Below are positions 10,168-62,820 of a DNA stretch of 64,000 bases, piece by piece (within the stretch, counting starts at the first letter, position 1; each line of letters opens with the position of its first letter). The DNA lies in the sequence record PZ445450.1, one strand, 5' to 3'. Below the pieces are notes generated by a model. The model made no database searches. It was not told the DNA's origin and saw only the letters and a list, made by a program, of their open reading frames with translations. The position numbers and the translations under genes are program-made. The DNA is from a phage.

Positions 10168-10197
10168 TATTTTTAAGTTATCAGGTTGCTAGAGATC

Positions 10198-10229
10198 AGG
10201 AGGATTTCTAAAATGGATTTCCTCCTTTT
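10198..10229 (+). terminator. rho-independent terminator
   Basis: aggagga ... tcctcct stem followed by ttt; ends plus-strand block 1. Confidence 0.5.
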
Positions 10230-10478
10230 GATATTTCACCGGACCAGATATTTTAAAATTCTTAGAAAATCAGAAAATGGATCGAAAACTAAAATGGATT
10301 TTTCAGAGTAGGCGCGACAAGCTGAATCGCTCATCCTATCGTTTGCACCATATTCTAGACCACCATTACAGATTTCCCGCACATGCTCACATCCTTCTAC
10401 TAGAACTTCCTCCACTTACCCTTGACTTTTTATGGTAATAGTCTAACCACTATCTTGAGGTTGCGGTACAGCTTTCCG

Positions 10479-10640
10479 GGTACTCGATCTGTTTTTCGTT
10501 TCAAAGATTGAATTTTCTGAAAATTTTTCTCGATAAATTTCTCAGTACTCGATCTGTTTTTCGTTTTCTGAATCGGATTTTCTGGAAATCGTTCCGGAGC
10601 TCGACCTGAAATTTTTGGGGACGAAATCGATTTTTCGTTT
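10479..10640. repeat. AT-rich tandem direct repeats
   Basis: gtactcgatctgtttttcgttt occurs identically at 10479 and 10548; flanking gattttctg(a/g)aaat and aaatggat(t) motifs recur 3-4 times between 10200 and 10680. Confidence 0.6.
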
Positions 10641-10772
10641 TCAGAAATGGATTTTTAAAATTTCTATATGGGAATATTTTATAGGATACTGTTTTATAGG
10701 AAATTGTTACGGAGGGTAATTAGCATGCTAATTAAATTTATTAAATGCGAGGAGTTCTCATTTAGAATTTTG

Positions 10773-10927
10773 AATGATAATCATTCTCGTTTGCAGAATA
10801 ACGGGCAGGCCCGGTGATTGTCTCCCGGCCCCTGTTGCCCCGGCTTGTTATTATAGTATCACACAGGACAAAGAAAGCAAGGACTTTTTGCATAAATTTT
10901 TAAATGATAATGATAACCGTTCTCATT
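10773..10927. promoter_or_regulatory. Fur-box-like palindromes next to a GC-rich hairpin element
   Basis: aatgataatcatt (10773-10785) and aatgataatgataaccgttctcatt (10903-10927) resemble the Fur box GATAATGATAATCATTATC; GC-rich elements at 10806-10846 and 10941-10980. Confidence 0.4.
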
Positions 10928-11149
10928 TTATGCAGCGCCCATCCCCGGTGGTTGTCTCCCCCGTCACCGGTGCCTGCCGTCCTTTCGATAGGTATATTGT
11001 GCCACCTGGCGGGGCCGCTGTCAACACTTTTCAAAAAATTTTTCTAACCTGATGCGCTAACCGTTGCAACCTGGCGGGGCCAGCCTGGCAGGGGGGTGAA
11101 AGCTTGCAAACCTGGTAGTAGGGTAAACAATTGAAGAGGAGGTACAAAA

Positions 11150-11323
11150 ATGAAAGGTAATGCTACTCACCTGGAGAATGTAGCGATTAATGACGCTGAG
11201 GCTATCGCCCTGGTTGAAAAGGCTATGGCGGGAGCGTTGGAACATAAAGAAGAGTACGAAAAAATGGTGGTTAACCTAGCGGGGGCGGCAGGTGGATTCT
11301 ATCATAAAAATAATTTAAAATAG
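11150..11323 (+). CDS. small hypothetical protein (57 aa)
   Basis: Strong RBS gaagaggagg 7 nt upstream; not in ORF track (under 60 aa). Confidence 0.45.
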   Translation: MKGNATHLENVAINDAEAIALVEKAMAGALEHKEEYEKMVVNLAGAAGGFYHKNNLK

Positions 11324-11326
11324 TCG

Positions 11327-11354
11327 TTGACAACAAGGTTAATCATGGTATTAT
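11327..11354 (+). promoter_or_regulatory. sigma70-like promoter (TTGACA-N16-TATTAT)
   Basis: -35 11327-11332, -10 11349-11354. Confidence 0.5.
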
Positions 11355-11404
11355 TACCCTACAAGGTGAACAACACCGCACTAACCAGTAAAGAGGATAA
11401 ATTT

Positions 11405-11602
11405 ATGAACGCATACGGGATCAAAGTACGTTGCAACACTCGCCAGGTGGTCACCAATCAAGTGATTTGCCGGGTGGATGTAACCATCAACAACGGGCAA
11501 GGCCTTTATAAATTTCGTCGCGGTCATAGCTATACCCTGCAACAGCTTAATCGTTGCGCCCTGACAAAAGGTCAGATCAACCACTGGTTTAATAAAAAAT
11601 AA
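11405..11602 (+). CDS. hypothetical protein
   Basis: aagagga RBS before internal ATG; the longer track ORF overlaps the promoter. Confidence 0.5.
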   Translation: MNAYGIKVRCNTRQVVTNQVICRVDVTINNGQGLYKFRRGHSYTLQQLNRCALTKGQINHWFNKK

Positions 11603-11605
11603 ATA

Positions 11606-11634
11606 TTGACATGTAGTCTGAAACAAAATATACT
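11606..11634 (+). promoter_or_regulatory. sigma70 promoter (TTGACA-N17-TATACT)
   Basis: -35 11606-11611, -10 11629-11634. Confidence 0.6.
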
Positions 11635-11666
11635 GAAAGCACAAAAGACACTAAGAGGATAAAATC

Positions 11667-12065
11667 ATGAAAACCACAACCTTTAATTTTGACAATGCTG
11701 ACTTCTCTTTTTCTGATGTTAAAAGCTGCCGCCGTGATCGCGGATTCTACAAGGCCTATAATCTGGTTGGCCTGGACGATGATAATAATTTGCACGAAGT
11801 AGCGGAGATCCGGTACTATGCCGCCGCCAGCGGTAACACTCACTACTGTGTATTTTGGATTCACGACAACAAGAACAATAAGTACGGTTATACTGGCGGC
11901 AAGGCGAGCGGTCACGGTTATGATAAAGCCAACGCTGCACTTGAAAGCGCATTAAGTGCCATGGGAATCACTGCCGACGGCTGGATCTATGAAGAAGAGT
12001 TTTTGGCGGCACTTGCTAACCACCTGGGCTATAAAAAGCACATTGTAACATGTGCCCACGAATAA
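11667..12065 (+). CDS. hypothetical protein
   Basis: aagaggataaaa RBS; 132-aa ORF. Confidence 0.55.
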   Translation: MKTTTFNFDNADFSFSDVKSCRRDRGFYKAYNLVGLDDDNNLHEVAEIRYYAAASGNTHYCVFWIHDNKNNKYGYTGGKASGHGYDKANAALESALSAMGITADGWIYEEEFLAALANHLGYKKHIVTCAHE

Positions 12066-12073
12066 AAAAATTA

Positions 12074-12102
12074 TTGACACGCTGCAAAATTCAAGTAAAC
12101 TA
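12074..12102 (+). promoter_or_regulatory. sigma70-like promoter (TTGACA, -10 TAAACT)
   Basis: -35 12074-12079; followed by 5' hairpin ggcggga-atgt-ttcccgcc at 12112-12130. Confidence 0.5.
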
Positions 12103-12149
12103 TACACAAAAGGCGGGAATGTTTCCCGCCAACACAAAGGAAAAAGATC

Positions 12150-12545
12150 ATGAATAAGAACGTACGCCGCATCATGAACGAACTGGCAAACGATGAAAAA
12201 ATTATTGACATGCATTTAGTCAACATTTGCCGCCGTTGTGTAACATATAACAACCGCGCCGCAAAAGCGCGTGAGATGAACGCAAAAGGCACCTTAAAGC
12301 CTTTTCAGGTGGTTGTAAAATCTATAACTAATGCAGCAGGCCAGGCGCATGACCACAACAACGAGAGCACTAATATTGATCCGTCTTACGTAATGAAACG
12401 GATCCGGACTTGCAAGAATAAAGAGCAGGTGTATAACGTCATAGATTGGCTGGACTCCCTGGGCGATGTGGTTTACAATAGGTTTTCTGCAGCCATCGAG
12501 ATCCAGCTTGACAGATTGGACGGGAAAGTACTAAAAACTTATTGA
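12150..12545 (+). CDS. hypothetical protein
   Basis: Leader caacacaaaggaaaaag then ATG; 131-aa ORF. Confidence 0.55.
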   Translation: MNKNVRRIMNELANDEKIIDMHLVNICRRCVTYNNRAAKAREMNAKGTLKPFQVVVKSITNAAGQAHDHNNESTNIDPSYVMKRIRTCKNKEQVYNVIDWLDSLGDVVYNRFSAAIEIQLDRLDGKVLKTY

Positions 12546-12547
12546 GT

Positions 12548-12591
12548 TTATTTTTAGATGGCCTTGACTCCAGGGCCATCAATAAAGTAAA
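12548..12591 (+). repeat. 44-nt intergenic element, copy 1 of 3 identical
   Basis: ttatttttagatggccttgactccagggccatcaataaagtaaa; hairpin GATGGCC/GGCCATC with TTGACT in the loop; begins 3 nt after the stop codon. Confidence 0.8.
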
Positions 12592-12625
12592 CTAACCACA
12601 ATTAAGCGGAAAAGGAGGCTTAAAG

Positions 12626-12745
12626 ATGAGCACTACACGCCAGCACACAAAGGTAACTATTATCGTTTGCATCATTGGTTACATCCTGGCGCAAATGTTG
12701 ATGGGTAGCGCCAACGGTGTAGCAAAATTTTTCTTAAACTTTTAA
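12626..12745 (+). CDS. small hydrophobic peptide (39 aa)
   Basis: aaaaggaggc RBS; sequence VTIIVCIIGYILAQMLMG. Confidence 0.4.
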   Translation: MSTTRQHTKVTIIVCIIGYILAQMLMGSANGVAKFFLNF

Positions 12746-12773
12746 TTGACAAGCTAACTTAGATCAGTATACT
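12746..12773 (+). promoter_or_regulatory. sigma70 promoter (TTGACA-N16-TATACT)
   Basis: -35 12746-12751, -10 12768-12773; 5' hairpin gggaa-aac-ttccc follows. Confidence 0.6.
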
Positions 12774-12824
12774 AAGCACATAGACGGGAAAACTTCCCCA
12801 GACACACGAAAGGAGAAAAACACC

Positions 12825-13166
12825 ATGACTACTATGACCGCCGAAGAAAAAGCCCTGCAGATCGCCGCTCTGAAAAAACAGATCGCAGACCTTGAGAATA
12901 AGATCGATAACTTTGAAATCGACGAGGACAAGTACGACGAAAACTATGATGAATGGCTAGACGAGGTTTATGGCGAAATTATGATCGGAAACATTTCTTT
13001 TCTTCCGTCGCGTATCCTCAAGGAGTTAGATCCTATCGCTTACCGCTGCGGATTTAGCGACTACATCGACAGCCTGGATATTGAGGACGATGAAGAATAC
13101 CGGGAATTACAGACAGAGTTGGAAGAAGCAAAAGAAGAGCTTGCGGAGCTGGAAGAAAACGAGTAA
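12825..13166 (+). CDS. hypothetical acidic coiled-coil protein
   Basis: aaaggagaaaaa RBS; very acidic 113-aa protein. Confidence 0.55.
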   Translation: MTTMTAEEKALQIAALKKQIADLENKIDNFEIDEDKYDENYDEWLDEVYGEIMIGNISFLPSRILKELDPIAYRCGFSDYIDSLDIEDDEEYRELQTELEEAKEELAELEENE

Positions 13167-13168
13167 GA

Positions 13169-13212
13169 TTATTTTTAGATGGCCTTGACTCCAGGGCCAT
13201 CAATAAAGTAAA
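13169..13212 (+). repeat. 44-nt intergenic element, copy 2 of 3 identical
   Basis: Identical 44-mer to 12548..12591; begins 3 nt after the stop codon. Confidence 0.8.
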
Positions 13213-13255
13213 CTTTATACTGTTAACACTGAACTAATGCATAGGAGTTAAAACC

Positions 13256-13501
13256 ATGGCAGCACTAATCACTAAATATTACGCCCCTACCAACACCAAA
13301 AGCGCCCGTATCATGGTAAAAGGCTTCGGACGTAAAAAGGTTTACACCTGGGATTATGCCTTAGACACGGAAGACAACTACACCAACGCGATGACAGATT
13401 TTATTAATGAGCTGAACACGCGGATCTTGACAAATTATAAAATTACCGATATTGCCTATATAGGGGAAGGCGGGATCTGTTTTGTCGGTATCGTCAAATA
13501 A
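13256..13501 (+). CDS. hypothetical protein
   Basis: aggag RBS; 81-aa ORF. Confidence 0.5.
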   Translation: MAALITKYYAPTNTKSARIMVKGFGRKKVYTWDYALDTEDNYTNAMTDFINELNTRILTNYKITDIAYIGEGGICFVGIVK

Positions 13502-13577
13502 ACTGTTTTTTCGGTGGTCCTGGTAGCAGGGCCATCTATAAAGATAGTTTATCAATACAATGAAAGGAGAAAGTAAC

Positions 13578-13925
13578 ATGATCAGTGGGGCAAGTTTTAT
13601 TATTGGCGCTATTGCTACGGCTTTAATTGTAAACAAGATCCAATCTAAAAACGAAAAAGAGAGCAACGCGCTCACAGAATACCCATTTTGGATATTCAAC
13701 GACAATGAAGACTACATTATCAAGTACAAGAATGAGAAGGGCGACCAGGTAACACCGCGACCGATCCCGGCCTACAAGATGCAAGAAACACTATACCGCC
13801 TAAAGGCTGGAGGCGCAAAAATCGTAGACTTTTGGGGATATGATTGCAAGGATCAGGAGGTTATAAAACGGCGTATCCGGGCTATTCAGGCCAATATTGA
13901 AGTTAGCAAGGGGGGGAATATATGA
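13578..13925 (+). CDS. hypothetical membrane-anchored protein
   Basis: aaaggagaaag RBS before second ATG; N-terminal helix ISGASFIIGAIATALIV. Confidence 0.5.
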   Translation: MISGASFIIGAIATALIVNKIQSKNEKESNALTEYPFWIFNDNEDYIIKYKNEKGDQVTPRPIPAYKMQETLYRLKAGGAKIVDFWGYDCKDQEVIKRRIRAIQANIEVSKGGNI

Positions 13926-14119
13926 AGATTAATTTTGAGAAGATTGTAAAGCGATCTCATGTTTCCGAAGAGCTGCCGGAACGACGCCAGCGTAACAATA
14001 AACTGAATAAGCCAAAAAGATTTGGAAAGATCTGGCGAAATCATTATGATCGTAAATTGCCTGGCCTACTTTTGGAACGTGAACGACAGGCAGAACGATA
14101 CCGCCATAAAGACAAATAA
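13922..14119 (+). CDS. hypothetical basic protein
   Basis: ATGA overlap; Arg/Lys-rich 65-aa ORF. Confidence 0.45.
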   Translation: MKINFEKIVKRSHVSEELPERRQRNNKLNKPKRFGKIWRNHYDRKLPGLLLERERQAERYRHKDK

Positions 14120-14127
14120 CAACCAAC

Positions 14128-14153
14128 GCCCCGCCATTGTGCGGGGCTTTTTA
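14128..14153 (+). terminator. rho-independent terminator
   Basis: gccccgc-cattgt-gcggggc then ttttta. Confidence 0.7.
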
Positions 14154-14300
14154 TTTCTATCCTACGAATAGCGCCCCTGGTTGGCCCTGTAAGCGCCAAA
14201 AAGGCCCCACCTATGCAATCGCCCCCCTTTAACCTGAAAACATCGCTTAGGGCCGTTTTATGGCGTTAAAAATATCATTGACAGTGATTTTATTTAAAGC

Positions 14301-14328
14301 TTGACATCTTAAACAGGTTAGCTATACT
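14301..14328 (+). promoter_or_regulatory. sigma70 promoter (TTGACA-N16-TATACT)
   Basis: -35 14301-14306, -10 14323-14328. Confidence 0.6.
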
Positions 14329-14360
14329 AACCACATCAAAGAGAGAAAGGAGTAAACGCC

Positions 14361-14621
14361 ATGCGTAAATTAAAAAATTTTGATAAAGTTGATGTTGTCC
14401 TGAATAATTTTTACTACTGCAACAACAAGGCCATTTGGTGGCGTGATAGTTCCACCGATAAAGTCAAGGCGCGCTTTCTCCAGGGGCACTGGCAAGGCCG
14501 CCCAGTGATTAAAATCATGGGGCAATTGGTAGCGTTTAAAAATTGCCGCCGTGTTGATGACGTTGAGGAGATTTTAAACATTTTGCGCCACAATAATTTA
14601 AAAAATAGTGTTGACAAGTAA
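14361..14621 (+). CDS. hypothetical protein
   Basis: aaggag RBS; 86-aa ORF. Confidence 0.5.
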   Translation: MRKLKNFDKVDVVLNNFYYCNNKAIWWRDSSTDKVKARFLQGHWQGRPVIKIMGQLVAFKNCRRVDDVEEILNILRHNNLKNSVDK

Positions 14622-14638
14622 ATCTCAATAAGTATAAT
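14611..14638 (+). promoter_or_regulatory. consensus sigma70 promoter (TTGACA-N16-TATAAT)
   Basis: -35 14611-14616, -10 14633-14638; 5' hairpin ggcgg-gaaaactta-ccgcc at 14649-14667. Confidence 0.65.
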
Positions 14639-14695
14639 TAAACACACAGGCGGGAAAACTTACCGCCACTAACAAAGAAAACAGGAGAAAATATC

Positions 14696-15319
14696 ATGAC
14701 CACCGTTAACATTACCACAGGTTACAATTTATCTTTCGACGTGCTGACCGACGAACAAAAAGAAAAAGCCATTGAAATGGTACGCGAAAGAGAAGAACAC
14801 AGCGGGGATGACTTTTTTGCAGAAAGTGTAATTGAACACTACAAAGAATATATCTTTCCAGAGTACGGCCTTGAAGATACCGAAGTACATTGGTCCGGCT
14901 TTTGGTGCCAGGGTGACGGCGCGTCAATCAGTGCTGAAAACGTGGATTTAGAAAAATTTTTGCGTAAAGTAAAGGCCCTGACCAAGTTCCGATCAATTCG
15001 TCACTTGTTCGGCACAATGCACGATGGCGAGTTATCAGCCAGTGTTGAACGCGACAAGTACAGCCATTACAGCCATGAAAACACTGTAAGCGGATACATT
15101 GATACCACCTGGCTAGATCTGACCGCCAAACAAGAAAACAAAGTGGAAGACCTGGAAGAGCTGATCACCGAGACGGTACGGGAGCTATCCCGCAAGGTTT
15201 ACGTAGACCTGGAGGAGGCCTATCTAGAACAGTTCACTACCGAAAACCTGATCGGCCTTATTGAGGCCAATGATTGGCGGTTTGATGTGGATGAATATGG
15301 AGAGATGAGTTTTTCATAA
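14696..15319 (+). CDS. hypothetical acidic protein (207 aa)
   Basis: Leader ctaacaaagaaaacaggagaaaat then ATG; largest protein of the cassette array. Confidence 0.55.
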   Translation: MTTVNITTGYNLSFDVLTDEQKEKAIEMVREREEHSGDDFFAESVIEHYKEYIFPEYGLEDTEVHWSGFWCQGDGASISAENVDLEKFLRKVKALTKFRSIRHLFGTMHDGELSASVERDKYSHYSHENTVSGYIDTTWLDLTAKQENKVEDLEELITETVRELSRKVYVDLEEAYLEQFTTENLIGLIEANDWRFDVDEYGEMSFS

Positions 15320-15327
15320 ATAAAGTG

Positions 15328-15355
15328 TTGCAATAATCTAAAAACCTGCTATATT
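15328..15355 (+). promoter_or_regulatory. sigma70-like promoter (TTGCAA-N16-TATATT)
   Basis: 5' hairpin ggggcaa-gacg-tttgcccc at 15365-15384 follows. Confidence 0.5.
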
Positions 15356-15408
15356 AAAACTCAAGGGGGCAAGACGTTTGCCCCACACAAAACAAAGAGG
15401 AAAACATT

Positions 15409-15789
15409 ATGAAAAACACTACTAAAGCTATTGACACCGTTATGTTTAACCTGGTTACCTTTCGCGAGGATATGAAAGATCTTCCACGTGAAACAGTGTG
15501 CGATCACATTGAAAACTATCGCAAACTAATCAAAGAGTTGCCTTTAAAACGTGACCAGTATGCGGCTAACGCTATGCTCAACGCCATGATCAAAAAGATG
15601 ATTCAGTGTGATTTAACCCTGGCCTATGATTATGCAGGTGGTCGTTTTGCAGTATACAATCAGCCCGTGCCTGGTATGGGCACCACTGAAGAATTGCACG
15701 CGCTCAATCTAAAACAAGACGTGTGGGATAGTATGCCCCGCGTGGTGGTGTGGGCAGAAAGCGGAAAGATTTACGGCGATAATTTTTAA
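15409..15789 (+). CDS. hypothetical protein
   Basis: cacaaaacaaagaggaaaac leader; 126-aa ORF. Confidence 0.55.
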   Translation: MKNTTKAIDTVMFNLVTFREDMKDLPRETVCDHIENYRKLIKELPLKRDQYAANAMLNAMIKKMIQCDLTLAYDYAGGRFAVYNQPVPGMGTTEELHALNLKQDVWDSMPRVVVWAESGKIYGDNF

Positions 15790-15853
15790 TCAGGTAACAG
15801 GCGGCATATTTGCCGCCTTATTGTTAAACAGAACTGCAAAAGAGGTACATAGA

Positions 15854-16225
15854 ATGGAATTTATTATTTTGGCCGTATTAGTTGCCTTGTTTAACGCCTG
15901 GATCGCTGGCAAGATGGGTAGATCCGCCTTTTTATGGTTTATTATATCTATTTTCCTGGGGGTGGTTGCAACTATTGTACTTGTTATCCTTGCAATTGTT
16001 GACAAAGGCGATAATAGAAAGGGTAAAGTATTTTCCGACCTGTATGACGCGCAAACATTTGTCAACGCCTATTATAGTGATCTTCCAGTCTCCCTACGCT
16101 GCAGCCTTGCACAACAGGTTTTCGATGAAGCTAAAACCAGAGATCACGCCCATGAGATTTGTTTAACTGAGGCGGATCGCCTATTTGAGAGGAATAGAAA
16201 ATATGTGGGCCAGCCGTTTAAATAA
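15854..16225 (+). CDS. hypothetical membrane protein (2 predicted TM helices)
   Basis: aaagaggtac RBS before internal ATG; IILAVLVALFNAWIAG and FLWFIISIFLGVVATIVLVILAIV. Confidence 0.5.
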   Translation: MEFIILAVLVALFNAWIAGKMGRSAFLWFIISIFLGVVATIVLVILAIVDKGDNRKGKVFSDLYDAQTFVNAYYSDLPVSLRCSLAQQVFDEAKTRDHAHEICLTEADRLFERNRKYVGQPFK

Positions 16226-16448
16226 TACCACGTTAATTAATCCCTTTGATGAAGATTTGAAGCCAGCCGCCTGGCGTGATGGATTCAATAACGAACGCTT
16301 TATTTTCAGGCCTGATCTTAAGGAATTTTATAACAATGGATCGAACAACGACAGAGATAATTTTTCTTGTGATGTGCGTGGTGATGGTACTCCTGGGGGC
16401 CATTGTAAACCACGTCACTACTACCAGGATGAAAGGGGGAGACGATGA
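16203..16448 (+). CDS. hypothetical protein
   Basis: gagagg RBS; its stop forms an ATGA overlap with the next ORF, supporting this frame. Confidence 0.4.
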   Translation: MWASRLNNTTLINPFDEDLKPAAWRDGFNNERFIFRPDLKEFYNNGSNNDRDNFSCDVRGDGTPGGHCKPRHYYQDERGRR

Positions 16449-16564
16449 CAACCAAGGATAAGCCCCGCACCGATAAGGTGCGCCGGGTTATGGTATGGCT
16501 TGAGATCATCGCCCTTGAAATATTGTTAGGCGTAGGGATGTATTTTATCGCTGTAAGTAACTGA
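16445..16564 (+). CDS. small membrane peptide (39 aa)
   Basis: aagggggagacg RBS; WLEIIALEILLGVGMYFIAV. Confidence 0.4.
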   Translation: MTTKDKPRTDKVRRVMVWLEIIALEILLGVGMYFIAVSN

Positions 16565-16568
16565 TAAC

Positions 16569-16598
16569 GGCCCCCGATCCCTGGGGGCCTAACTTTTT
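16569..16598 (+). terminator. rho-independent terminator
   Basis: ggccccc-gatccct-gggggcc followed by taacttttt. Confidence 0.65.
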
Positions 16599-16621
16599 CA
16601 AAAAATTTTTCTTCCGGGGTG

Positions 16622-16650
16622 TTGCAATCCGGTCCGAAATATGGATAATA
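16622..16650 (+). promoter_or_regulatory. sigma70-like promoter (TTGCAA-N17-ATAATA)
   Basis: Followed by 5' hairpin gggga-gctaa-tcccc at 16663-16677. Confidence 0.5.
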
Positions 16651-16708
16651 ATAATAATCAACGGGGAGCTAATCCCCACCAACACAAAAACCAGAAAGGA
16701 GAAACAAA

Positions 16709-16909
16709 ATGAGCAACAATATCCGCGTTATTAACTTCAAAAAAGAAGAAAAAATTGCCGTGCTGATTGACGGTCAAGAAATCTTCAAGGGCGACTATGA
16801 AGATCATCAAACGGCGATTAGTATCACTCGCGTGATTGGTTACCATAATTTTTACCCCCAAGGCGCTGAGGCAGCTGTTAAACGAATCAAAGAGATTGTA
16901 GGCCTGTAA
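16709..16909 (+). CDS. hypothetical protein
   Basis: Leader ccaacacaaaaaccagaaaggagaaac then ATG. Confidence 0.55.
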   Translation: MSNNIRVINFKKEEKIAVLIDGQEIFKGDYEDHQTAISITRVIGYHNFYPQGAEAAVKRIKEIVGL

Positions 16910-16912
16910 AAT

Positions 16913-16956
16913 TTATTTTTAGATGGCCTTGACTCCAGGGCCATCAATAAAGTAAA
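16913..16956 (+). repeat. 44-nt intergenic element, copy 3 of 3 identical
   Basis: Identical 44-mer to copies at 12548 and 13169; begins 4 nt after the stop codon. Confidence 0.8.
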
Positions 16957-16993
16957 TTTAAACCCTGTTAAAATACCACGCAGTTAACAAGGA

Positions 16994-17302
16994 GTGATAG
17001 ACATGTTTATCCAGGCTAATAATCTTTATTTCTTTGATGGTCAGATCGTAGACGGCGTGGAAGTAGAGATCACCGGGTGCCCTGGCGGTCAGGTTATGAC
17101 TTTTCGGAATAATGCCTTTGATGATTCTCATATCGTTATGAGAATGGAAGTTAGTAAGCTGGACGATAAGAAAACACTCATTGATTATTCCGTGAAAGAT
17201 CATCCAGACTACCACATGATCTATGGCGATTTGTGCATTGTTGACCGTGACAAGGTGAACGGCATTGTGATCGCTATTGTGAACGATGTTTTCTCAAACT
17301 AG
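16994..17302 (+). CDS. hypothetical protein
   Basis: aacaaggagtgatagac RBS. Confidence 0.55.
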   Translation: MIDMFIQANNLYFFDGQIVDGVEVEITGCPGGQVMTFRNNAFDDSHIVMRMEVSKLDDKKTLIDYSVKDHPDYHMIYGDLCIVDRDKVNGIVIAIVNDVFSN

Positions 17303-17319
17303 TTTCAGCAGGTTATTTT

Positions 17320-17670
17320 ATGAAAGTAAAACTATATTACCTTAATGAGCTTAACCCCCTTGCCCAGGTCCGCGCCCTGGCTAATACCTTGATTTGTGAG
17401 AAATCTGTATATTGTGTTGAGATTAACGCCATGCGTGAACGTCTCAAAGGTGGTTACTTTGACATCCATGCTGCAATCAACGGCCTGAATATGGAATTTA
17501 TCCGCTTACGTAACAGCCGCCAGAGTCTGGCAAGAATGGAACAAGATCCGGCCCACCTTCGTAAGCTGGTTATTGAAAACCATCTGATGTTCAATGCCGA
17601 TGGCGATTATTACCATTTTCACCGTAAACGCTGGTACCGTAGCGGCAATATAGGAAATAATGCAAAATAA
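17320..17670 (+). CDS. hypothetical protein
   Basis: 116-aa ORF; weak RBS. Confidence 0.45.
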   Translation: MKVKLYYLNELNPLAQVRALANTLICEKSVYCVEINAMRERLKGGYFDIHAAINGLNMEFIRLRNSRQSLARMEQDPAHLRKLVIENHLMFNADGDYYHFHRKRWYRSGNIGNNAK

Positions 17671-17707
17671 GGCCCCCGGCAGGGCCTACAGCGATATAAT
17701 CATCTAA

Positions 17708-17739
17708 AGGCTATGCAACCGCATGGCCTTTATTATTTT
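17708..17739 (+). terminator. rho-independent terminator
   Basis: aggctatgc-aacc-gcatggcct then ttattatttt. Confidence 0.6.
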
Positions 17740-17871
17740 GGCGTTACAGCGGCCCCAAGGCGCTTAAAAATTTTTTTAAAGAAGTGCTTGCATCAAGTCC
17801 TACAATATGGATAATAGGACGTGTCAGGGGGCGGCCCCCAATCATTAACCGGATAGATAGGAGTTAAAACT

Positions 17872-18156
17872 ATGGCTATTGTTACCGTTGGCGATGTAGT
17901 AGAAATGGAAGCCAAATACTTAAAAGCGGGTATGCATATCCTACGCAACGATCTTGAGCTAGTCCTGACAATGGTCGACTATAATCCCGGCCAGGATTAT
18001 CCAAGCATCGACTACTTTTTTGAGTATGTTGATGAAGAGCTAAAAGAAGACGAAGCCTATTGCGGTGAATTTTGCAACTTCTTTTGCCCTGATGAGGTTG
18101 TAAAAGTTATCTATCAACCTGGCGTACCTTTCCCGTTGCACGCCATCAATAAATAA
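17872..18156 (+). CDS. hypothetical acidic protein
   Basis: Promoter-like TTGCAT with 5' hairpin ggggg-cgg-ccccc at 17827-17839; aggag RBS. Confidence 0.5.
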   Translation: MAIVTVGDVVEMEAKYLKAGMHILRNDLELVLTMVDYNPGQDYPSIDYFFEYVDEELKEDEAYCGEFCNFFCPDEVVKVIYQPGVPFPLHAINK

Positions 18157-18218
18157 GCCTAGCGGGGCCGAAAAGGCCCCTCCTGAAATTATGAAAAAAT
18201 AAAGAGGGGTAAATCATC

Positions 18219-18455
18219 ATGATTGAACAAATTAAAAGCACTAAACCGAACGTTAACGGCAATGTTTCTCACTTTATTGGTGATAATGAAAGAGGGACAC
18301 CGTACGCTGCGGTAACAGTTCAACCGAACGGGGATTATTGGTTTACTGTATACGGATCTTATTCTTTTGGGCGTCCGGTGCATGATAGAATTTTAAAAGT
18401 AGCTAATCCGACCGGGAAGAATATCACAGCAGAAAAATTTTTTGAAAATAGTTGA
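18219..18455 (+). CDS. hypothetical protein
   Basis: aaagagggg RBS. Confidence 0.5.
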   Translation: MIEQIKSTKPNVNGNVSHFIGDNERGTPYAAVTVQPNGDYWFTVYGSYSFGRPVHDRILKVANPTGKNITAEKFFENS

Positions 18456-18479
18456 CATGACCGTATAAGACTGTAGTAT
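18452..18479 (+). promoter_or_regulatory. sigma70 promoter (TTGACA-N16-TAGTAT)
   Basis: 5' hairpin ggggc-aa-gcccc at 18490-18502, then ccaaccacaaagaggataaaaatc. Confidence 0.55.
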
Positions 18480-18527
18480 ATAAATCAAAGGGGGCAAGCC
18501 CCACCAACCACAAAGAGGATAAAAATC

Positions 18528-18707
18528 ATGGCTATTATTGCAAAGACCGAGATTGTAGGGTTAGATTCTATTCTCCTGGCATATGAGGAAGCTATAGAAA
18601 TGTATGTGGTTTCCTACGGTGAGTATATCCGTGAATATAAATCTGTTGATCTAGCTTTTGAATGTTATATTCGCCAGGTCAATAAAGCATATGATGATTA
18701 TCGTTAA
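18528..18707 (+). CDS. small hypothetical protein (59 aa)
   Basis: Full promoter-hairpin-RBS cassette upstream; below ORF-track size cut-off. Confidence 0.5.
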   Translation: MAIIAKTEIVGLDSILLAYEEAIEMYVVSYGEYIREYKSVDLAFECYIRQVNKAYDDYR

Positions 18708-18713
18708 AATAGT

Positions 18714-18741
18714 TTGACAACAATTATAAATCGGGTAGAAT
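18714..18741 (+). promoter_or_regulatory. sigma70 promoter (TTGACA-N16-TAGAAT)
   Basis: -35 18714-18719; 5' hairpin ggcggca-atga-tgccgct follows. Confidence 0.55.
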
Positions 18742-18792
18742 GTATTTCGTAGGGCGGCAATGATGCCGCTCACAACTAGAAGAGGGGTCATC

Positions 18793-18987
18793 ATGGCGCT
18801 TAAAAAACTAACAAGCAATACTCGTTGGGATGAAATCGACGGGGAAGTTTACATTTTCGCCCGTAAACCAGGGGATCAAAAATGGTCAAAGGCTTTTACT
18901 TGCCACCCTGCAACAATAGACCTGATAAAAAGGGAAGGTCTACGTGAAGCAGTATCAAGAAGCCTACTGATCCCTTGTAAAAAATAG
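18793..18987 (+). CDS. hypothetical protein
   Basis: agaagagggg RBS before internal ATG. Confidence 0.5.
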   Translation: MALKKLTSNTRWDEIDGEVYIFARKPGDQKWSKAFTCHPATIDLIKREGLREAVSRSLLIPCKK

Positions 18988-19068
18988 TTGGACAATACGC
19001 GGTTACCTGGTAAAGTGTACGACATAGGGCGGGGCAATAAGGCAACGCCCATTAATGAGGGTGGAATC

Positions 19069-19173
19069 ATGTTAGAGAAAATTTTCACGGTTGTAGTAGT
19101 GGGCCTGGCGTTATCGGTTGGAGTAGTTGCAACTATGGCTAACATGATCCTATCTTCCCACGGTATTGGATAA
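19069..19173 (+). CDS. small membrane peptide (34 aa)
   Basis: aatgagggtgg RBS; IFTVVVVGLALSVGVVATMANMIL. Confidence 0.4.
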   Translation: MLEKIFTVVVVGLALSVGVVATMANMILSSHGIG

Positions 19174-19183
19174 GGTGAATCAA

Positions 19184-19399
19184 ATGATCACGAATAAAAC
19201 AGGTAAAACAGAATTTTTACGCGGCTTGCAGATCGGCAAGCCTGAGATCTGGTATTGCACTAAAACACCACGTGACGAAATGAAAGACTTCACCGCCACG
19301 CTACAACGGGTAAAGATATCCATCACACAGAAAAAGGCCTTGATAGTGGTGGAAGGTGAGATCCCCCAAGCCGTTGTTATAGTTGAGCGTACAGCATAG
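19184..19399 (+). CDS. hypothetical protein
   Basis: aaggtg RBS before second ATG. Confidence 0.45.
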   Translation: MITNKTGKTEFLRGLQIGKPEIWYCTKTPRDEMKDFTATLQRVKISITQKKALIVVEGEIPQAVVIVERTA

Positions 19400-19488
19400 T
19401 TTAATCTATACCGTACACCCCATTAACTAACAAAGCATAAACAGGCGGCGGTGACCGCCTTAAACGCAACAGAAAGAGGATAGACACA

Positions 19489-19773
19489 ATGAAAAAGATG
19501 ATCGCAGTGGTTGCCCTGGTTGTTGGACTTAATGCGCCTGCAATGGCTAAAGAGCTGGCAAAAGAGGTAGATCTAACTGATATCCATGCCGTCAATCAAA
19601 TCGGGGTTACTTATCGCTTATGCCTTGCCGCTAAAACTTTTAAGGACGGCACTACAGAGTACTACGGATTCGAGGGCGTCCGGTGCGGTGAACTTGCTCG
19701 CGACCTTAAAGAAGATCCAGACCTGGAGGATCTGCCGATAACCGTAAACGGGAAAACTTACGTGAACCGTTAA
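19489..19773 (+). CDS. hypothetical secreted/periplasmic protein with signal peptide
   Basis: MKKMIAVVALVVGLNAPAMA then K; aaagagga RBS; 5' hairpin ggcgg-cggtga-ccgcc at 19444-19459. Confidence 0.55.
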   Translation: MKKMIAVVALVVGLNAPAMAKELAKEVDLTDIHAVNQIGVTYRLCLAAKTFKDGTTEYYGFEGVRCGELARDLKEDPDLEDLPITVNGKTYVNR

Positions 19774-19775
19774 CC

Positions 19776-19910
19776 ATGAGAAAGATAATTATTACCATAG
19801 GGATCGTGGCGGCAATGTTGGCGATCTTTCCCCTTATGGTTAGGTATGTGCTGATCAGTGTTGTCCTGGTAGTCAGCGATCTAATGTTATATATTAACTC
19901 ATTGTTTTAG
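19776..19910 (+). CDS. small membrane peptide (44 aa)
   Basis: Hydrophobic ORF IIITIGIVAAMLAIFPL...VLISVVLVV; weak RBS. Confidence 0.3.
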   Translation: MRKIIITIGIVAAMLAIFPLMVRYVLISVVLVVSDLMLYINSLF

Positions 19911-19918
19911 GTGGAATA

Positions 19919-20110
19919 ATGACAGCAGAAGAAGTTAAAAAAGTACTGGCAGTACTACGTTACCATAATCATTGCAAGGTGAAGAATGATCCTGATTATC
20001 TCGATTCATCCCTTGAAGAGGATACACTGCAAGCCATAAGCAACATGCAAGAATTGCTTAAGCGTATGACAGAGAAAAACCGACCGGACTATATAGGCGA
20101 AAAAATATAA
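19919..20110 (+). CDS. hypothetical protein
   Basis: aggtgg RBS; 63-aa ORF. Confidence 0.45.
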   Translation: MTAEEVKKVLAVLRYHNHCKVKNDPDYLDSSLEEDTLQAISNMQELLKRMTEKNRPDYIGEKI

Positions 20111-20126
20111 TCTTTATAAACCATAA

Positions 20127-20156
20127 AACAGGGCTTGTAATGGTCCTGTTTTTTGT
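20127..20156 (+). terminator. rho-independent terminator
   Basis: aacagggc ... gtcctgtt stem followed by ttttttg. Confidence 0.55.
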
Positions 20157-20170
20157 TATACTTATTTCAC

Positions 20171-20217
20171 GGCAGGCACCTGGCGACGGGGGGAGACAAT
20201 CACCGGGGGTGCCTGTC
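20171..20217. repeat. GC-rich element, inverted copy of the element at 10941..10980
   Basis: Reverse complement reads ccccggtgattgtctcccccc...ggtgcctgcc, matching 10941-10980 and, partly, 10806-10846. Confidence 0.7.
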
Positions 20218-20239
20218 ATATAAAAAACTATAAAAACCG

Positions 20240-20268
20240 TTGACACCTGCCAGGCGGTGGGGTAACAT
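20240..20268 (+). promoter_or_regulatory. sigma70-like promoter (TTGACA-N17-TAACAT)
   Basis: -35 20240-20245, -10 20263-20268. Confidence 0.5.
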
Positions 20269-21780: not shown

Positions 21781-21806
21781 GGGGCTTAAAGGCCCCTTTC
21801 TTTTTG
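21781..21806 (+). terminator. rho-independent terminator
   Basis: ggggc-ttaaag-gcccc followed by tttctttttg. Confidence 0.7.
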
Positions 21807-22421
21807 TCTGCTCTTCTCCTACCATAAACGGCCCTACCTGGCAAGTGGAATAATTGACTAGCCATCAATCCCACATACTGTACAAATATACATGGAAAAT
21901 AACTATTGCATAATCTTTCATTGTGCGGTAGCAGGGCCATTTTTACCCGTTTTCTCTCCCAAAAGTGCACGTAATGCCGCTATTGCACAAATTTTAACCT
22001 GATGCACATATCCAATATCTTGTCAACAACTAAAAATCTTTATAAGTCATACACTTATACAGCATCGAAAGCGTGTTCTACGTGAAAAATCGAGTATAAC
22101 TATAGCCGCCAGATCTCAGAATTCACGTACGCACGCCATTCTATAGCCTGCAAAGTATTTATTCCAACCACAGAATAACGGAATAGTCAATACCTGCATA
22201 AAATAATTATTCGTGTAAACTGCATAACATAAATCAGCTCAGGTGTCAACATTTTTCGTAAACAGTCCGAAATTATCACGATGAGTTATCATAAACAGAG
22301 AAATCTTTAGTCGTCTAATGTTTACTGTACATTACTATACTGACTGGAATCATTAGATGACTAAGAAAAAGATAAGAAATAATTAATAATGTAATTGTTT
22401 TATCTGTAACAATAAGGCAAC

Positions 22422-22700
22422 CATGCAAACGAATGTCATGGCGCGACGGAGTCGCGACATAATATAAAAGCAGTAACCATCACCCCCGTGATAGTTTGTC
22501 TGCAATCTATTATTCAGATCATAGTTGCCTTGTATTTAGTTAATCATGACATAACAAGCAAGGCAACTATAGCTCTGATAATAGTTGCCCTGCTTTTATA
22601 TTATGTCATAGATTGTTAGCTTGTTAACTGTCAGCCTGTTGGCTGTTAGCTTGTCAATTATTAAATTGCTAATCTTTATCATGCAAACGAATGTCATGGC
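22422..22700. repeat. Composite repeat locus: 21-bp direct repeats flanking nested inverted repeats
   Basis: catgcaaacgaatgtcatggc at 22422-22442 and 22680-22700; 18-bp inverted repeat gacataatataaaagcag (22456-22473) / ctgcttttatattatgtc (22580-22597); inner palindromes cgcgac/gtcgcg and atagttgccttg/caaggcaactat. Confidence 0.8.
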
Positions 22701-22711
22701 TTATCATCTCT

Positions 22712-22767
22712 GTGTAAACAGTTTGGGCGTAAACTATTCAGGCGTAAACAGTCTATGCGTAAACAGT
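22712..22767. repeat. Four tandem iterons with 15-bp period (G[CT]GTAAAC[AT][AG]T)
   Basis: gtgtaaacagt, gcgtaaactat, gcgtaaacagt, gcgtaaacagt at 15-bp spacing; tgttagcttgt/tgtcagcctgt repeats sit just upstream and tgtgtc repeats downstream. Confidence 0.8.
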
Positions 22768-23141
22768 GAGATATGGAATAGTAACAGCCGTTATTGTGTC
22801 ATATTGTGTGACATTGTGTCCGGTGTCTGGTGTCCAGTGTGTCAGACAAGTTTTTCTCCTCTTTGTCAAGTGCTGCATGAAAAATTTACAAACTGGTATG
22901 GTAGCATTTTTGCGGCCCTGTTTACATTCAGTTGTGTATGTATAACCCTTGTTGTGTGGGCGTTTAGACGTCTAGACGGTTGGAAGTCTGCAGGTCAATA
23001 TCTAATCTATCGGCTGCTAACTATATCCCACACAAATAGTAAGAAATATAATTGTTATGTGCGTAAACAGTAACTCATGTTATCAATCCCTGTATGTATC
23101 GCCAGTGGTGCGCATAATGGGTATTATGTTAAATTGCCCGT

Positions 23142-23178
23142 AATGATAATGGTTCTCACAATGATAGGTATTCTCATT
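23142..23178. promoter_or_regulatory. Fur-box-like palindromic motifs
   Basis: aatgataatggttctcacaatgataggtattctcatt; same motif family as 10773 and 10903. Confidence 0.35.
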
Positions 23179-23420
23179 CATCCACACAAAATAGGTTGCA
23201 AATGTTGTGCCACTGTGTGAACGGCCTGGCCTATTAATTTCCCTCACTGCCTCGATATTTGAGAATTGTTATAAGAATGAGAAGTATTCCCATTTCGTCC
23301 GCCTGGCAGCACTCCTGTAGTCCTACAAGGACTCTAGCTGAAAGCTAGACCCTTCGGGCCTCCCTGCAGGTCAGGTCAAAATCGTGGTAGAATTGGGCTT
23401 ATTCAGATATTTCTGGCCGA

Positions 23421-23961
23421 CTCTTCAGGTCTGTGTGGGAAAAGCCAACCTCTCCGGCGGGGCAGGGGGAGGTCAATTAAAAAATTTACGTGGTGTATGA
23501 AGCGCTCTTCAGGTAAGGCAGGTATTATGGGATGAAACCCTCTTCAGGCAATGATATTTGTGGGTGTGATATTTGCTGGAAAGCCAGATATGACGGGACT
23601 CCCGGCGGGGATGGGGCAGTACAGACAGGGAAAATATGGGGATGTAGTTGGGTAAATTGATCAGACAGGTAGAGTATGGAATATGTTACAAGTATGTTAA
23701 ATATGGAGGGTGAATATCTGTAGGATTTGTGTGTAAAATCAAAGACTTAAGCGGTGTTGTGGTATTTTCTATAAATAATTCAAGTTTAATAGGTAATATT
23801 TGTCTCTATCCACTCTGTGTGGTAAACAGATTCAGATGATATTGGTTTGCAAGTGTATACATAATATACAAATTAAAGATACAAGAAACCCCCCTCCCCC
23901 TTCGGCTACCATTCACCTTTTCCTCTGACTGGTACTTAAACACTTATTCAGACTCTTCAGG
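23421..23961. repeat. Dispersed direct repeats of CTCTTCAGG with degenerate ~110-bp units
   Basis: CTCTTCAGG at 23421, 23505, 23540 and 23953; ctccggcggggcaggggg and ctcccggcggggatgggg recur; no supported ORF. Confidence 0.7.
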
Positions 23962-24311
23962 TTATCACCCATATATCATATGGCAGTGACTGGTGTCCTC
24001 CGGCCCCTCTTTCGTCACCCGTCCGCTTCGCCATGCTAATGCCATAGCCAAATGTTCGGTTGTTCACCCTGTTCACTCAGGTGTATCTCCATACCCCTTC
24101 AAACCGAAGAGAACAGAAAACCCGAATTACTCGGTAAAAGAAAAGAGAAGAACTTAATTTTATCATGATAGGCAAGAATGTCAAGGCATGACTGCTCACT
24201 AAACAAGCAAACAGTCATGTGTGGAAGGTAAGTGATTGTGGTGGTAGGAAATTTAGTTGAAAGATGTGTTATAGGTGCTCCCAGCACTTTAGCCGGGTAG
24301 CTAATTGTGTG

Positions 24312-62085: not shown

Positions 62086-62160
62086 GCCCTGTTAGCTTAG
62101 TGGATAAAGCAGCGGCCTTCTAAGCCGTTGACACTGGTTCGAGTCCAGTACGGGGTGCCA
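62086..62160 (+). tRNA. tRNA-Arg (anticodon UCU)
   Basis: Cloverleaf folded by hand: acceptor gccctgt/acggggt (one G-U), anticodon loop CUUCUAA, T-loop TTCGAGT, CCA encoded. Confidence 0.8.
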
Positions 62161-62164
62161 AATT

Positions 62165-62251
62165 GGGGAGTTATCCCGTAGAGGTAGCGGTGTAGACTGT
62201 AAATCTATTGTCATTGCGACTCGGGTGGTTCGACTCCACCACTCCCCACCA
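62165..62251 (+). tRNA. tRNA-Tyr (anticodon GUA), class II
   Basis: Acceptor ggggagt/actcccc, anticodon loop CUGUAAA, long variable arm, T-loop TTCGACT, CCA encoded. Confidence 0.75.
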
Positions 62252-62365
62252 AATTTATATTTTTAAATGCATAAATCATACAGATAATGACATTGATATT
62301 TATCGTCGTTTATACTAGTCACTAACTGCTCGAAAATCAGTGTCATTATCAGTGTAATTTATAAA

Positions 62366-62456
62366 GGAGGGTAGGGAGCAATGGTGCTCAAGCGGTCTTG
62401 AAAACCGTCCCGTTGAGGATGACTCGATGATGGTTCGATTCCATTACTCTCCGCCA
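62366..62456 (+). tRNA. tRNA-Ser (anticodon UGA), class II
   Basis: Acceptor ggagggt/actctcc, anticodon loop CUUGAAA, long variable arm, T-loop TTCGATT, CCA encoded. Confidence 0.75.
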
Positions 62457-62554
62457 CATTGTTGACCTTGTAATTAAGCGAAAGCCGGAAGCAGAACCGG
62501 ATTATCAAATGTTACAGTCGTCATCGCCGACTAGCCACATGGTCAACATATTGC

Positions 62555-62653
62555 GCTAGGTAAGCCCTTTGGCAAGGGCGAGGATTTTTAATCCTGAAAA
62601 TAGACGAGGTAGTCGTTGAATACATAGGTGGTTCGATTCCATCACCTAGCACC
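62555..62653 (+). tRNA. aberrant tRNA-like gene (candidate Lys-UUU-like anticodon loop; ~30-nt insertion before T-arm)
   Basis: Acceptor gctaggt/acctagc, D-arm gccc-tttggcaa-gggc, T-arm ggtgg-ttcgatt-ccatc. Anticodon region aggatttttaatcct gives UUUUUAA loop only with a 4-bp stem; ~30 nt lie between it and the T-arm; 3' CC only. Confidence 0.45.
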
Positions 62654-62657
62654 TTTT

Positions 62658-62733
62658 GCTGATGTAGCACAATTGGCAGTGCAATTGATTTGTAATCAAT
62701 AGGTTGCAGGTTCAAGTCCTGCCATCAGCACCA
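62658..62733 (+). tRNA. tRNA-Thr (anticodon UGU)
   Basis: Acceptor gctgatg/catcagc, D-stem gcac/gtgc, anticodon loop UUUGUAA, T-loop TTCAAGT, CCA encoded. Confidence 0.8.
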
Positions 62734-62734
62734 T

Positions 62735-62809
62735 GGCCCTGTAGCTGGAAGGTTCAAGCAAGCGACTCATAATCGCCAGACGGTGGTTCAATTCCACCCA
62801 GGGCCACCA
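62735..62809 (+). tRNA. tRNA-Met (anticodon CAU; elongator Met or Ile2 lysidine type)
   Basis: Acceptor ggccctg/cagggcc with G1-C72, anticodon loop CUCAUAA, T-loop TTCAATT, CCA encoded. Confidence 0.7.
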
Positions 62810-62820
62810 AATAATAAATA

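Follow-up and report, generated by a model that had tools for sequence, protein, structure and literature searches.

Why should the early region of an rV5-like phage carry three copies of one GC-rich element, two of them facing one way and the third, some 9 kb further on, facing the other? The question arises in a stretch of 64,000 nucleotides (nt) from phage sequence record PZ445450.1, referred to here as the window. An earlier note on this DNA had described inverted GC-rich elements around an array of small gene cassettes, and had proposed that they could mark an invertible or recombination-delimited segment or else represent a reused regulatory hairpin. Here we describe a conserved module in which the element directly follows a predicted promoter, and we propose that the three repeats are probably paralogous copies of a promoter-proximal transcribed element of ~45-50 nt, namely a leader or a 5′ domain resembling that of a small RNA (sRNA).

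The element and its copies

The element contains a 17-nt core, GGGAGACAAYCACCGGG, which has exactly three exact matches in the window, at 10810-10826 and 10944-10960 on the minus strand and at 20191-20207 on the plus strand. With up to three mismatches allowed, 0.16 matches of this core are expected per shuffle, and none of 100 shuffles reached three. The 23-mer singled out in the earlier note lies at 10943-10965 (plus strand) and 20186-20208 (minus strand), with no occurrence expected from shuffles, and a repeat finder independently returned the same inverted pairs, designated I4 (29 nt, 86%) and I21 (23 nt, 91%). Direct reading of the window places the sequences of that note where it had put them, and both the repeat finder and the core matches bear out its description of full copies that are inverted and about 9.2 kb apart.

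We define the sense of the element as the strand that reads GAGACAA. Copy A occupies 10930-10979 on the minus strand (GGCAGGCACCGGTGACGGGGGAGACAACCACCGGGGATGGGCGCTGCAT in the sense direction, core running from 10960 to 10944), copy B occupies 10796-10846, also on the minus strand (sense AAGCCGGGGCAACAGGGGCCGGGAGACAATCACCGGGCCTGCCCGTTATTC, core from 10826 to 10810), and copy C occupies 20169-20219 on the plus strand (ACGGCAGGCACCTGGCGACGGGGGGAGACAATCACCGGGGGTGCCTGTCAT, core 20191-20207). Copy B, previously regarded as a partial copy at 10806-10846, turned out to be a full member and the best conserved copy across phage genera. A related complete genome of 137.6 kb contains only three element copies; four other relaxed 12-mer matches in it are without flanking similarity to the elements.

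Linkage to predicted promoters

Read in the GAGACAA sense, each copy corresponds roughly to positions +1 to +50 of a predicted sigma70-type promoter. P_A (TTGACA-17-(TG)CACAAT, 10996-11024, minus strand) agrees with the consensus at 10 of 12 positions, carries an extended -10 TG and is predicted to fire leftward into copy A, which begins about 10 nt past the predicted start site. P_B (TTGCTT-16-(TGa)TACTAT, 10853-10880, minus strand), which was read by eye, would likewise fire leftward into copy B. On the plus strand, the promoter and terminator scan located P_C (TTGTAA-16-(TG)TATACT, 20135-20162) within the hairpin that terminates the upstream gene (20125-20152), the whole unit spanning 20125-20162. 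The next predicted early promoter (TTGACA-17-TAACAT, 20240-20268, plus strand) stands directly after copy C, so that copy C appears to be a promoter-plus-element cassette without an open reading frame (ORF) of its own. The predicted P_A and P_B are directed leftward, opposite to the surrounding genes and toward Fur-box-like sites and iteron-like repeats, and P_C is directed rightward; this outward orientation of the modules relative to the cassette array is the reason why the copies are inverted.

This linkage extends well beyond the window. A same-sense promoter precedes every one of about 30 copies in Vequintavirus, Phapecoctavirus, Certrevirus, Seunavirus, Mydovirus and ABPH49, directly upstream of the element as judged by consensus prediction, and the orientation of the core is strictly locked to the promoters in about 45 copies. 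The promoters homologous to P_B are stronger in other phages, reading TTGCAA-17-TATATT in phiTE, CR8 and Mydovirus and TTGACA-17-TATTAT in a relative from IMG/VR. The promoter-spacing scan was passed by four C-type copies (those of the window, C12, anhysbys and CR8, from three genera), in each of which 35 nt separate the -10 hexamer from the AAnCACC motif of the element; this distance is 35-36 nt for the Mydovirus X copies and 32-35 nt for the B copies.

Genomic setting

Positions 9-22 kb of the window match 297 phage records, the best of which are Vequintavirus (rV5-like) coliphages at 92-94% identity, and the annotation of these relatives across the segment consists of hypothetical proteins only. 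According to gene direction and GC skew, genes run rightward to about 24 kb and leftward beyond. Between about 11.1 and 21.8 kb lies an array of small genes, most of them with their own sigma70-type promoter and terminator, and the element copies bracket most of it, as had been claimed. Copies A and B are located in non-coding region 1 (NCR1), a gene-free gap of 1 kb at about 10170-11150 between co-directional genes, which also holds iteron-like repeats, an AT-rich stretch and two Fur-box-like palindromes. The repeats (family D2) number three, run in direct orientation over ~57 nt each and share a GGGTACTCGATC core containing GATC; the AT-rich stretch follows them (10473-10668, plus strand), and it is here that leftward transcripts from the predicted P_A and P_B would enter. 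Analogous repeats are found in phiTE (GGGTCTCGATCG, six or more times) and in Mydovirus, and the repeats of the window, together with the AT-rich stretch, may constitute a replication origin.

Conservation in other phages and in metagenomes

When NCR1 was compared with other genera by BLAST (711-nt query), only the stretch with Fur-like box 1 and copy B still aligned; similarly, a 201-nt query around copy C aligned only over the terminator-promoter and the element. Cross-genus identity is 71-88% in Phapecoctavirus, Certrevirus, Seunavirus, Mydovirus and others, with 71-88% for copy B plus its Fur-like box and 77-88% for the copy C terminator-promoter and element unit in Phapecoctavirus, Seunavirus and Certrevirus. 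When 29 copies are aligned with MAFFT, AAnCACC forms the sole invariant columns, the downstream TGCC.G..AT is nearly invariant, and the 5′ half is G-rich and variable. In Mydovirus, the second copy is diverged and in direct orientation, and no C-type copy was found in phiTE within the genome stretch examined.

A scan of metagenome contigs with GACAAnCACCnnnnnTGCCnGnnATTC gave 51 matches, 17 of which, on 16 contigs, are true copies with a promoter and a G-rich 5′ half; few phages of this group are present in IMG/VR. Some of the element-bearing contigs encode proteins related to the rV5-like group, and on the freshwater contig L069 one ORF is 35% identical to the phosphohydrolase gene of Mydovirus phages. 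In this freshwater lineage the element stands between a promoter matching the consensus at 12 of 12 positions and an intrinsic terminator of the form CCCAAC...GTTGGG-T5. Such stand-alone promoter-to-terminator units occur on contigs L060, L062, L067, L069 and L082, with two of them in direct orientation and 4 kb apart on L067 (536-680 and 4520-4640); a defined 3′ end in the form of a terminator is present in L060 and L067a. The predicted RNA of ~105 nt has a fold z-score of -4.1 and would comprise a 5′ hairpin whose 27-nt loop holds the conserved core, followed by an A/U-rich linker and the terminator. Judged from its predicted architecture, this unit would be the strongest argument for the element working as RNA.

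A host-derived repeat, of the repetitive extragenic palindromic (REP) or enterobacterial repetitive intergenic consensus (ERIC) type, was also considered, and was ruled out by a BLAST search in which the element had zero matches among 5,426 E. coli genomes.

Fur-box-like sites next to the element

The binding site of the iron regulator Fur, the Fur box, is described by the 19-bp consensus GATAATGATAATCATTATC (PMC4506495). Two similar sites accompany the leftward modules. Palindrome 1 (TTGAATGATAATCATTCTCG, 10770-10789) starts 23 nt after the CACC of copy B, and site 2 (TGATAATGATAACCGTTCTCA, 10905-10925) lies 21-27 nt after the CACC of copy A, within an 8-bp inverted repeat, TGCATAAA/TTTATGCA. 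The consensus, in its 19-bp or its 7-1-7 form, is matched at 10775-10789 (two mismatches in 14) and at 10905-10925, and in the relative phiTE one site is a single mismatch away from the 19-bp form. A scan of the window with the 7-1-7 form TGATAATnATTATCA, allowing up to three mismatches, found an enrichment, with 21 matches versus 6.8 expected (background rate 3.3e-4 per nt); they form clusters in NCR1 and, near 23.1-23.3 kb, in a second non-coding region.

The spacing of these sites is fixed. In almost all enteric genomes sampled, the first box lies exactly 23 nt after the CACC of the B copy, often with more at +52 and +81, resulting in phased palindromes with a 29-bp period. The C copies of Seunavirus and Certrevirus have Fur-like boxes at +53 and +89 after the CACC; none accompanies the Phapecoctavirus C copies or the element of the freshwater lineage. 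In the window, box 1 overlaps on the plus strand a candidate promoter, TTGAAT-18-CAGAAT, which faces P_B, and a convergent antisense transcript under Fur control is therefore conceivable at this site.

Orientation of the segment in relatives

The geometry that prompted the idea of an invertible or recombination-delimited segment is real, as the copies are inverted, lie 9.2-9.4 kb apart and surround a variable cassette array, and a similar inverted, outward-facing B/C pair is found 7.9-10.6 kb apart in Phapecoctavirus, Seunavirus and Certrevirus. That these copies are invertase crossover sites, or substrates for homologous inversion, which flip or delimit the 9.2-kb cassette segment is nevertheless most improbable. 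No inverted arrangement exists in any of the more than 50 relatives compared: 47 phage records cover at least 80% of positions 9-22 kb in one same-strand place, the related 137.6-kb genome is colinear with its flanks across both element sites, and in six annotated genomes of four further genera, gene direction from copy B rightward, as far as copy C if present, agrees with that of the flanks. In addition, the invariant part, RRYAAnCACC, is asymmetric and provides no dyad-symmetric crossover site, and the longest shared stretch, 29 nt at 86%, is short for RecA-dependent exchange. Scanned against Pfam, the ten largest ORFs within or adjoining 9.8-21.8 kb yielded no recombinase domain, and copies in direct orientation occur in Mydovirus phages and on contig L067. 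Comparison of the boundaries in relatives, which the earlier note had recommended, places the mosaic breakpoint near copy C at the terminator-promoter junction upstream of the element, hence outside it. Three of the four defining features of Hin/Gin-type systems are lacking, inverted flanking repeats being the one present. On the grounds of colinearity, an asymmetric core, the lack of a recombinase domain in the ten ORFs scanned and the direct copies, an inversion or recombination site was rejected, and the invertible segment appears largely refuted by these sequence comparisons.

Folding, coding potential and rejected candidates

Only copy C has a predicted fold better than that of shuffled sequences (z -3.8 and -4.6), the values being -0.7 for copy A and -0.7 and -2.1 for copy B. 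Duplex energies for the 5′ half paired with the 16 nt following CACC range from -8 to -22 kcal/mol, and every copy is foldable. Of the CCGGTG/CACCGG hairpin once drawn for each copy, what holds is that a hairpin of some kind can form in all of them; the perfect version is confined to copy A. A closing stem defined by homology (5′ ATRGCR / 3′ YGYYAT) pairs in 79% of cells versus 28-54% in slid registers.

The region of copies A and B is crossed by a plus-strand ORF (10774-11052, 92 amino acids) that spans both elements, begins inside a Fur-like box without a Shine-Dalgarno sequence and figures in some GenBank records, e.g., SOPHIAROSE_196, as a hypothetical protein. The equivalent ORFs of other genera use, between them, all three frames where they cross the core, and in phAPEC8 a length difference of 5 nt shifts the frame with the DNA still conserved. 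This ORF is almost certainly spurious, and the region of copies A and B is, on this comparison, to be regarded as non-coding. Protein-coding function was also dismissed for the core in general, since it is crossed in different frames among genera and the short minus-strand ORFs use all three frames.

Several other candidates were tried and set aside. An intrinsic terminator does not fit, because none of the three copies is followed by a U-run (the following sequences being ATATAAAAAAC, TTATTCTGC and TGCATAAAA) and no terminator was called at them by the scan. The A-rich tail after copy C recalls a preQ1-I riboswitch, but no Rfam model matched. More generally, with Rfam 15 at gathering thresholds only tRNAs passed, nothing appeared over the elements at E<=5, and the elements of relatives had no match either. 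A mimic of a ribosome-binding site was considered on account of the resemblance of the core to GGAGAAAAACACC-ATG of two genes, but only 2 of the 91 genes having a Shine-Dalgarno sequence carry CACC directly before ATG. A G-quadruplex or R-loop motif was discarded because the G-runs are not conserved among copies, and an internal target complementary to the core was not found in the window besides the elements themselves. The literature search returned no paper containing the motif, none linking rV5 to a Fur box and nothing relevant on RNA-seq in Vequintavirinae.

Possible functions of the module

The conserved module would consist of a sigma70-type promoter, a GC-rich element with AAnCACC and, usually, Fur-box-like operator sites. 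Two of the three modules in the window, those of P_A and P_B, would lead leftward out of the array into NCR1, and that of P_C would lead rightward near the other end of the array. From the predicted promoters onwards, we infer that these promoters are active and that the nascent RNA folds as a 5′ hairpin displaying the conserved GAGACAAnCACC to a partner, either protein or RNA. Bound just downstream, Fur or a protein sharing its site preference could then gate how far the transcript reaches; this would link transcription into origin-like non-coding regions to the iron status of the host. In its most far-reaching form, which we consider unlikely, the element would be the seed-bearing 5′ domain of an undescribed family of phage small or leader RNAs, common to Vequintavirinae, Stephanstirmvirinae and uncultured relatives, and wired in the enteric phages to phased host Fur operators. 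If this were true, host iron status would gate the transcription from constitutive early promoters into origin-like regions, and a virulent phage would possess an iron-sensing switch for replication or for its early programme.

A number of results weigh against a role as transcribed element. All promoters considered here are consensus predictions, and P_B in the window reaches only 8 of 12 consensus positions, under the scan threshold. No terminator follows any of the three window copies, window copy C has no Fur-like box within 110 nt, and what suggests Fur binding is sequence similarity only. Regarding structure, RNAalifold returned no consensus (-1.45 kcal/mol), the mean fold z-scores are weak (-1.2 in the sense versus -0.75 in the antisense direction), and partner shuffling of the closing stem was not significant (170/2000). 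In the half-swap test, swapped 5′ and 3′ halves pair as well as the native ones (p about 0.8), so the hairpin potential is generic, the 5′ half being G-rich and the 3′ half C-rich. None of these three approaches (RNAalifold, partner shuffling and half-swap) identified base pairs supported by covariation. Finally, the conservation of primary sequence and the fixed 23-nt spacing to the palindromes fit a DNA nucleoprotein site equally well. On these data, the role may be at the RNA level or at the DNA level. What remains of the reused regulatory hairpin suggested earlier is the reuse, the promoter-locked orientation and the foldability; neither a terminator role nor demonstrable selection for the hairpin could be upheld.

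The main rival to the transcribed element is accordingly a DNA-level site, in which the element and the phased Fur-like palindromes form a nucleoprotein complex, e.g., part of a replication origin or an operator array, and the promoter linkage reflects transcriptional activation or priming of the origin instead of an RNA function. Conservation in primary sequence without covariation and a fixed element-palindrome spacing with a 29-bp period speak for such a complex, and it would also accommodate the position of copies A and B, which share the gene-free 1 kb of NCR1 with iteron-like repeats and AT-rich DNA, the analogous repeats of phiTE and Mydovirus, and the Seunavirus and Certrevirus copy C, which points into the second large non-coding region. 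The freshwater lineage is harder to reconcile with it, as its compact unit running from promoter to terminator, without palindromes or iterons in the vicinity, is difficult to explain without an RNA product; moreover, in about 45 copies the orientation of the core strictly follows that of the promoter, and these phages have no mapped origin. Weighing both sides, we regard a DNA-level site as possible but the less probable explanation. Much further down the scale is a passive sequence, either unrelated terminators or functionless, decaying remnants of a duplicated cassette leader. It could account for copies that are GC-rich and hairpin-capable, for the terminator hairpin ahead of copy C and for the similarity of the core to two real translation-initiation regions of the phage, but we hold it to be improbable, given that the copies lack a U-run and a called terminator, that AAnCACC is invariant in 29 copies and that the element persists across genera in which the surrounding non-coding DNA can no longer be aligned; the low frequency of CACC before ATG (see above) also speaks against it.

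The module is a conserved, previously undescribed non-coding feature of a well-known phage group. The rV5-like phages, coliphages of broad host range that are isolated widely and are being considered for therapy, have early regions annotated almost wholly as hypothetical, and the module marks both borders of the hypervariable early cassette array. If host Fur does bind to the Fur-like boxes, the iron regulator of the host would be read or titrated by a virulent phage. Should the element be an RNA, it would represent a new family of phage non-coding RNA, and its invariant motif of 7 nt would be open to direct testing. An RNA and a DNA outcome alike would help to locate the unmapped replication and control regions of this phage group.

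Further observations on the early and non-coding regions

At several cassette junctions (12545-12593, 13166-13214, 13501-13549, 16910-16958 and 20125-20162) the loop of the terminator hairpin carries the -35 hexamer of the next promoter (family D1 and P_C), and the breakpoints of related genomes coincide with terminator-promoter cassette junctions. The early promoters at 11003-11016, 11069-11098, 11107-11121 and 20246-20262 have unusual GC-rich spacers with CCWGG (Dcm) sites, e.g., TTGACA-CCTGCCAGGCGGTGGGG-TAACAT; the motif CACCTGGCG(G/A)GGGG of these spacers is also the 5′ half of copy C. Six tRNA genes are clustered at 62086-62894.

At the position of copy A, Phapecoctavirus, Certrevirus, Seunavirus, Mydovirus and ABPH49 have an almost invariant GC-rich block of ~100 nt, GCCACCCCACGGCGAAAAGGCGGGGCTAAC...GGAAGGTGGATCGCCGG, on the minus strand and with its own promoter upstream (about 770-880 in L003, about 730-840 in L004 and 11640-11760 in L020). 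A consensus fold of -17.3 kcal/mol was computed for it, including one compensatory pair and a hairpin whose length varies, and the block is non-coding because a length difference of 5 nt shifts any reading frame. This block, which has no Rfam match and is absent from Vequintavirus, may be a second undescribed non-coding RNA.

The second non-coding region (NCR2) comprises 2.5 kb (21800-24300) at the strand switch and contains no convincing gene, only short ORFs such as 22621-23073 and 23993-24157. It harbors Fur-like boxes at 23144, 23162 and 23260. GCGTAAACAG occurs four times at about 22712-22770, repeats of the CATTGTGT type lie at about 22790-22840, and a stretch of 21 nt is repeated exactly at 22422 and 22680; the equivalent region of phiTE has eight or more Fur-like boxes. 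NCR2 also includes a dif-like XerC/XerD site at 23107-23134, GGTGCGCATAA-TGGGTA-TTATGTTAAAT, both arms of which are identical to those of the E. coli dif string GGTGCGCATAATGTATATTATGTTAAAT (PMC3025954). A 51-nt query with this site matches 5,403 of 5,426 E. coli genomes, in one place each (median 1, highest 2), and 5,398 of 5,408 such places are chromosomal. Among the phages, the site is 94-100% conserved in about 130 rV5-like records and weaker in Cronobacter and Enterobacter phages, and phiTE carries AGTGCGTATAA-GGTGTA-TTATGTTAAAT. A host dimer-resolution site is unexpected in a virulent myovirus, and no paper linking rV5 with dif or Xer was found in the literature search. FtsK-orienting polar sequences (KOPS) directed toward the dif-like site were also considered and were rejected, since they show no polarity. 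Both ends of the linear record MG065635.1 fall within NCR2, and ~80 bp (23821-23900 of the window) align to both of them, which could be an assembly overlap or a hint at physical genome ends. This record and about 20 more labelled "Campylobacter phage" are rV5-like and marked UNVERIFIED.

Comparison with known systems

The Hin/Gin/Cin systems, with their hix and gix sites, share with the window the short inverted repeats around a phage segment of several kb. They differ from it in that no invertase came to light in the ten ORFs scanned here, no dyad-symmetric crossover site is present and no relative shows the alternative orientation, and in that the repeats here are situated inside promoter modules. 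A different parallel is offered by origins such as those of ColE1 (RNA II), T4 (ori(uvsY) and ori(34)) and T7 (primary origin), where a promoter is followed by a G-rich initial transcribed region and then by AT-rich DNA and repeats. In contrast to them, it is AAnCACC and not the G-runs that is conserved among the copies, window copy C is followed by a gene and not by repeats, and no origin has been mapped.

Like the genes for Fur-controlled sRNAs of the RyhB type, the module tightly links a Fur-box-like operator to a short non-coding unit, and the freshwater version has the architecture of an sRNA, with a consensus promoter, 5′ hairpin, A/U-rich linker and terminator. In RyhB, however, the Fur box overlaps the promoter, whereas here the boxes are phased and lie 23-81 nt downstream of the element; they are also absent from the terminator-bearing freshwater lineage, and the element has no similarity to host DNA. 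The CI RNA of P4 (seqA/B/C) and the c4 RNA of P1/P7 are further examples of short early-leader repeats that work via RNA, with a small RNA cut from, or initiated at, the leader. The repeats of these phages are complementary within one transcript, while all three copies in the window have the same sense sequence and would find a target only if rightward transcripts cross copies A and B; a rightward transcript across copy B would give 17/17 complementarity between copies B and C.

The nutL/nutR sites of lambda and the putL/putR sites of HK022 are short cis elements transcribed just downstream of divergent early promoters, inverted on the DNA as in the window, and they act on the transcript or on RNA polymerase and not on DNA. 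Measured against the nut consensus, the element alignment shows no boxA/boxB arrangement, i.e., no boxA with a GAAAA-loop boxB, and CGCTATTC only loosely resembles the boxA sequence CGCTCTTA. There is likewise no conserved two-hairpin fold and no Rfam match, and the modules point outward into non-coding regions instead of long operons. The element belongs to none of the nut, put, leader-RNA and RyhB-type systems; its closest counterparts by position and inverted arrangement are lambda nut and HK022 put together with the leader RNAs of P4 and P1.

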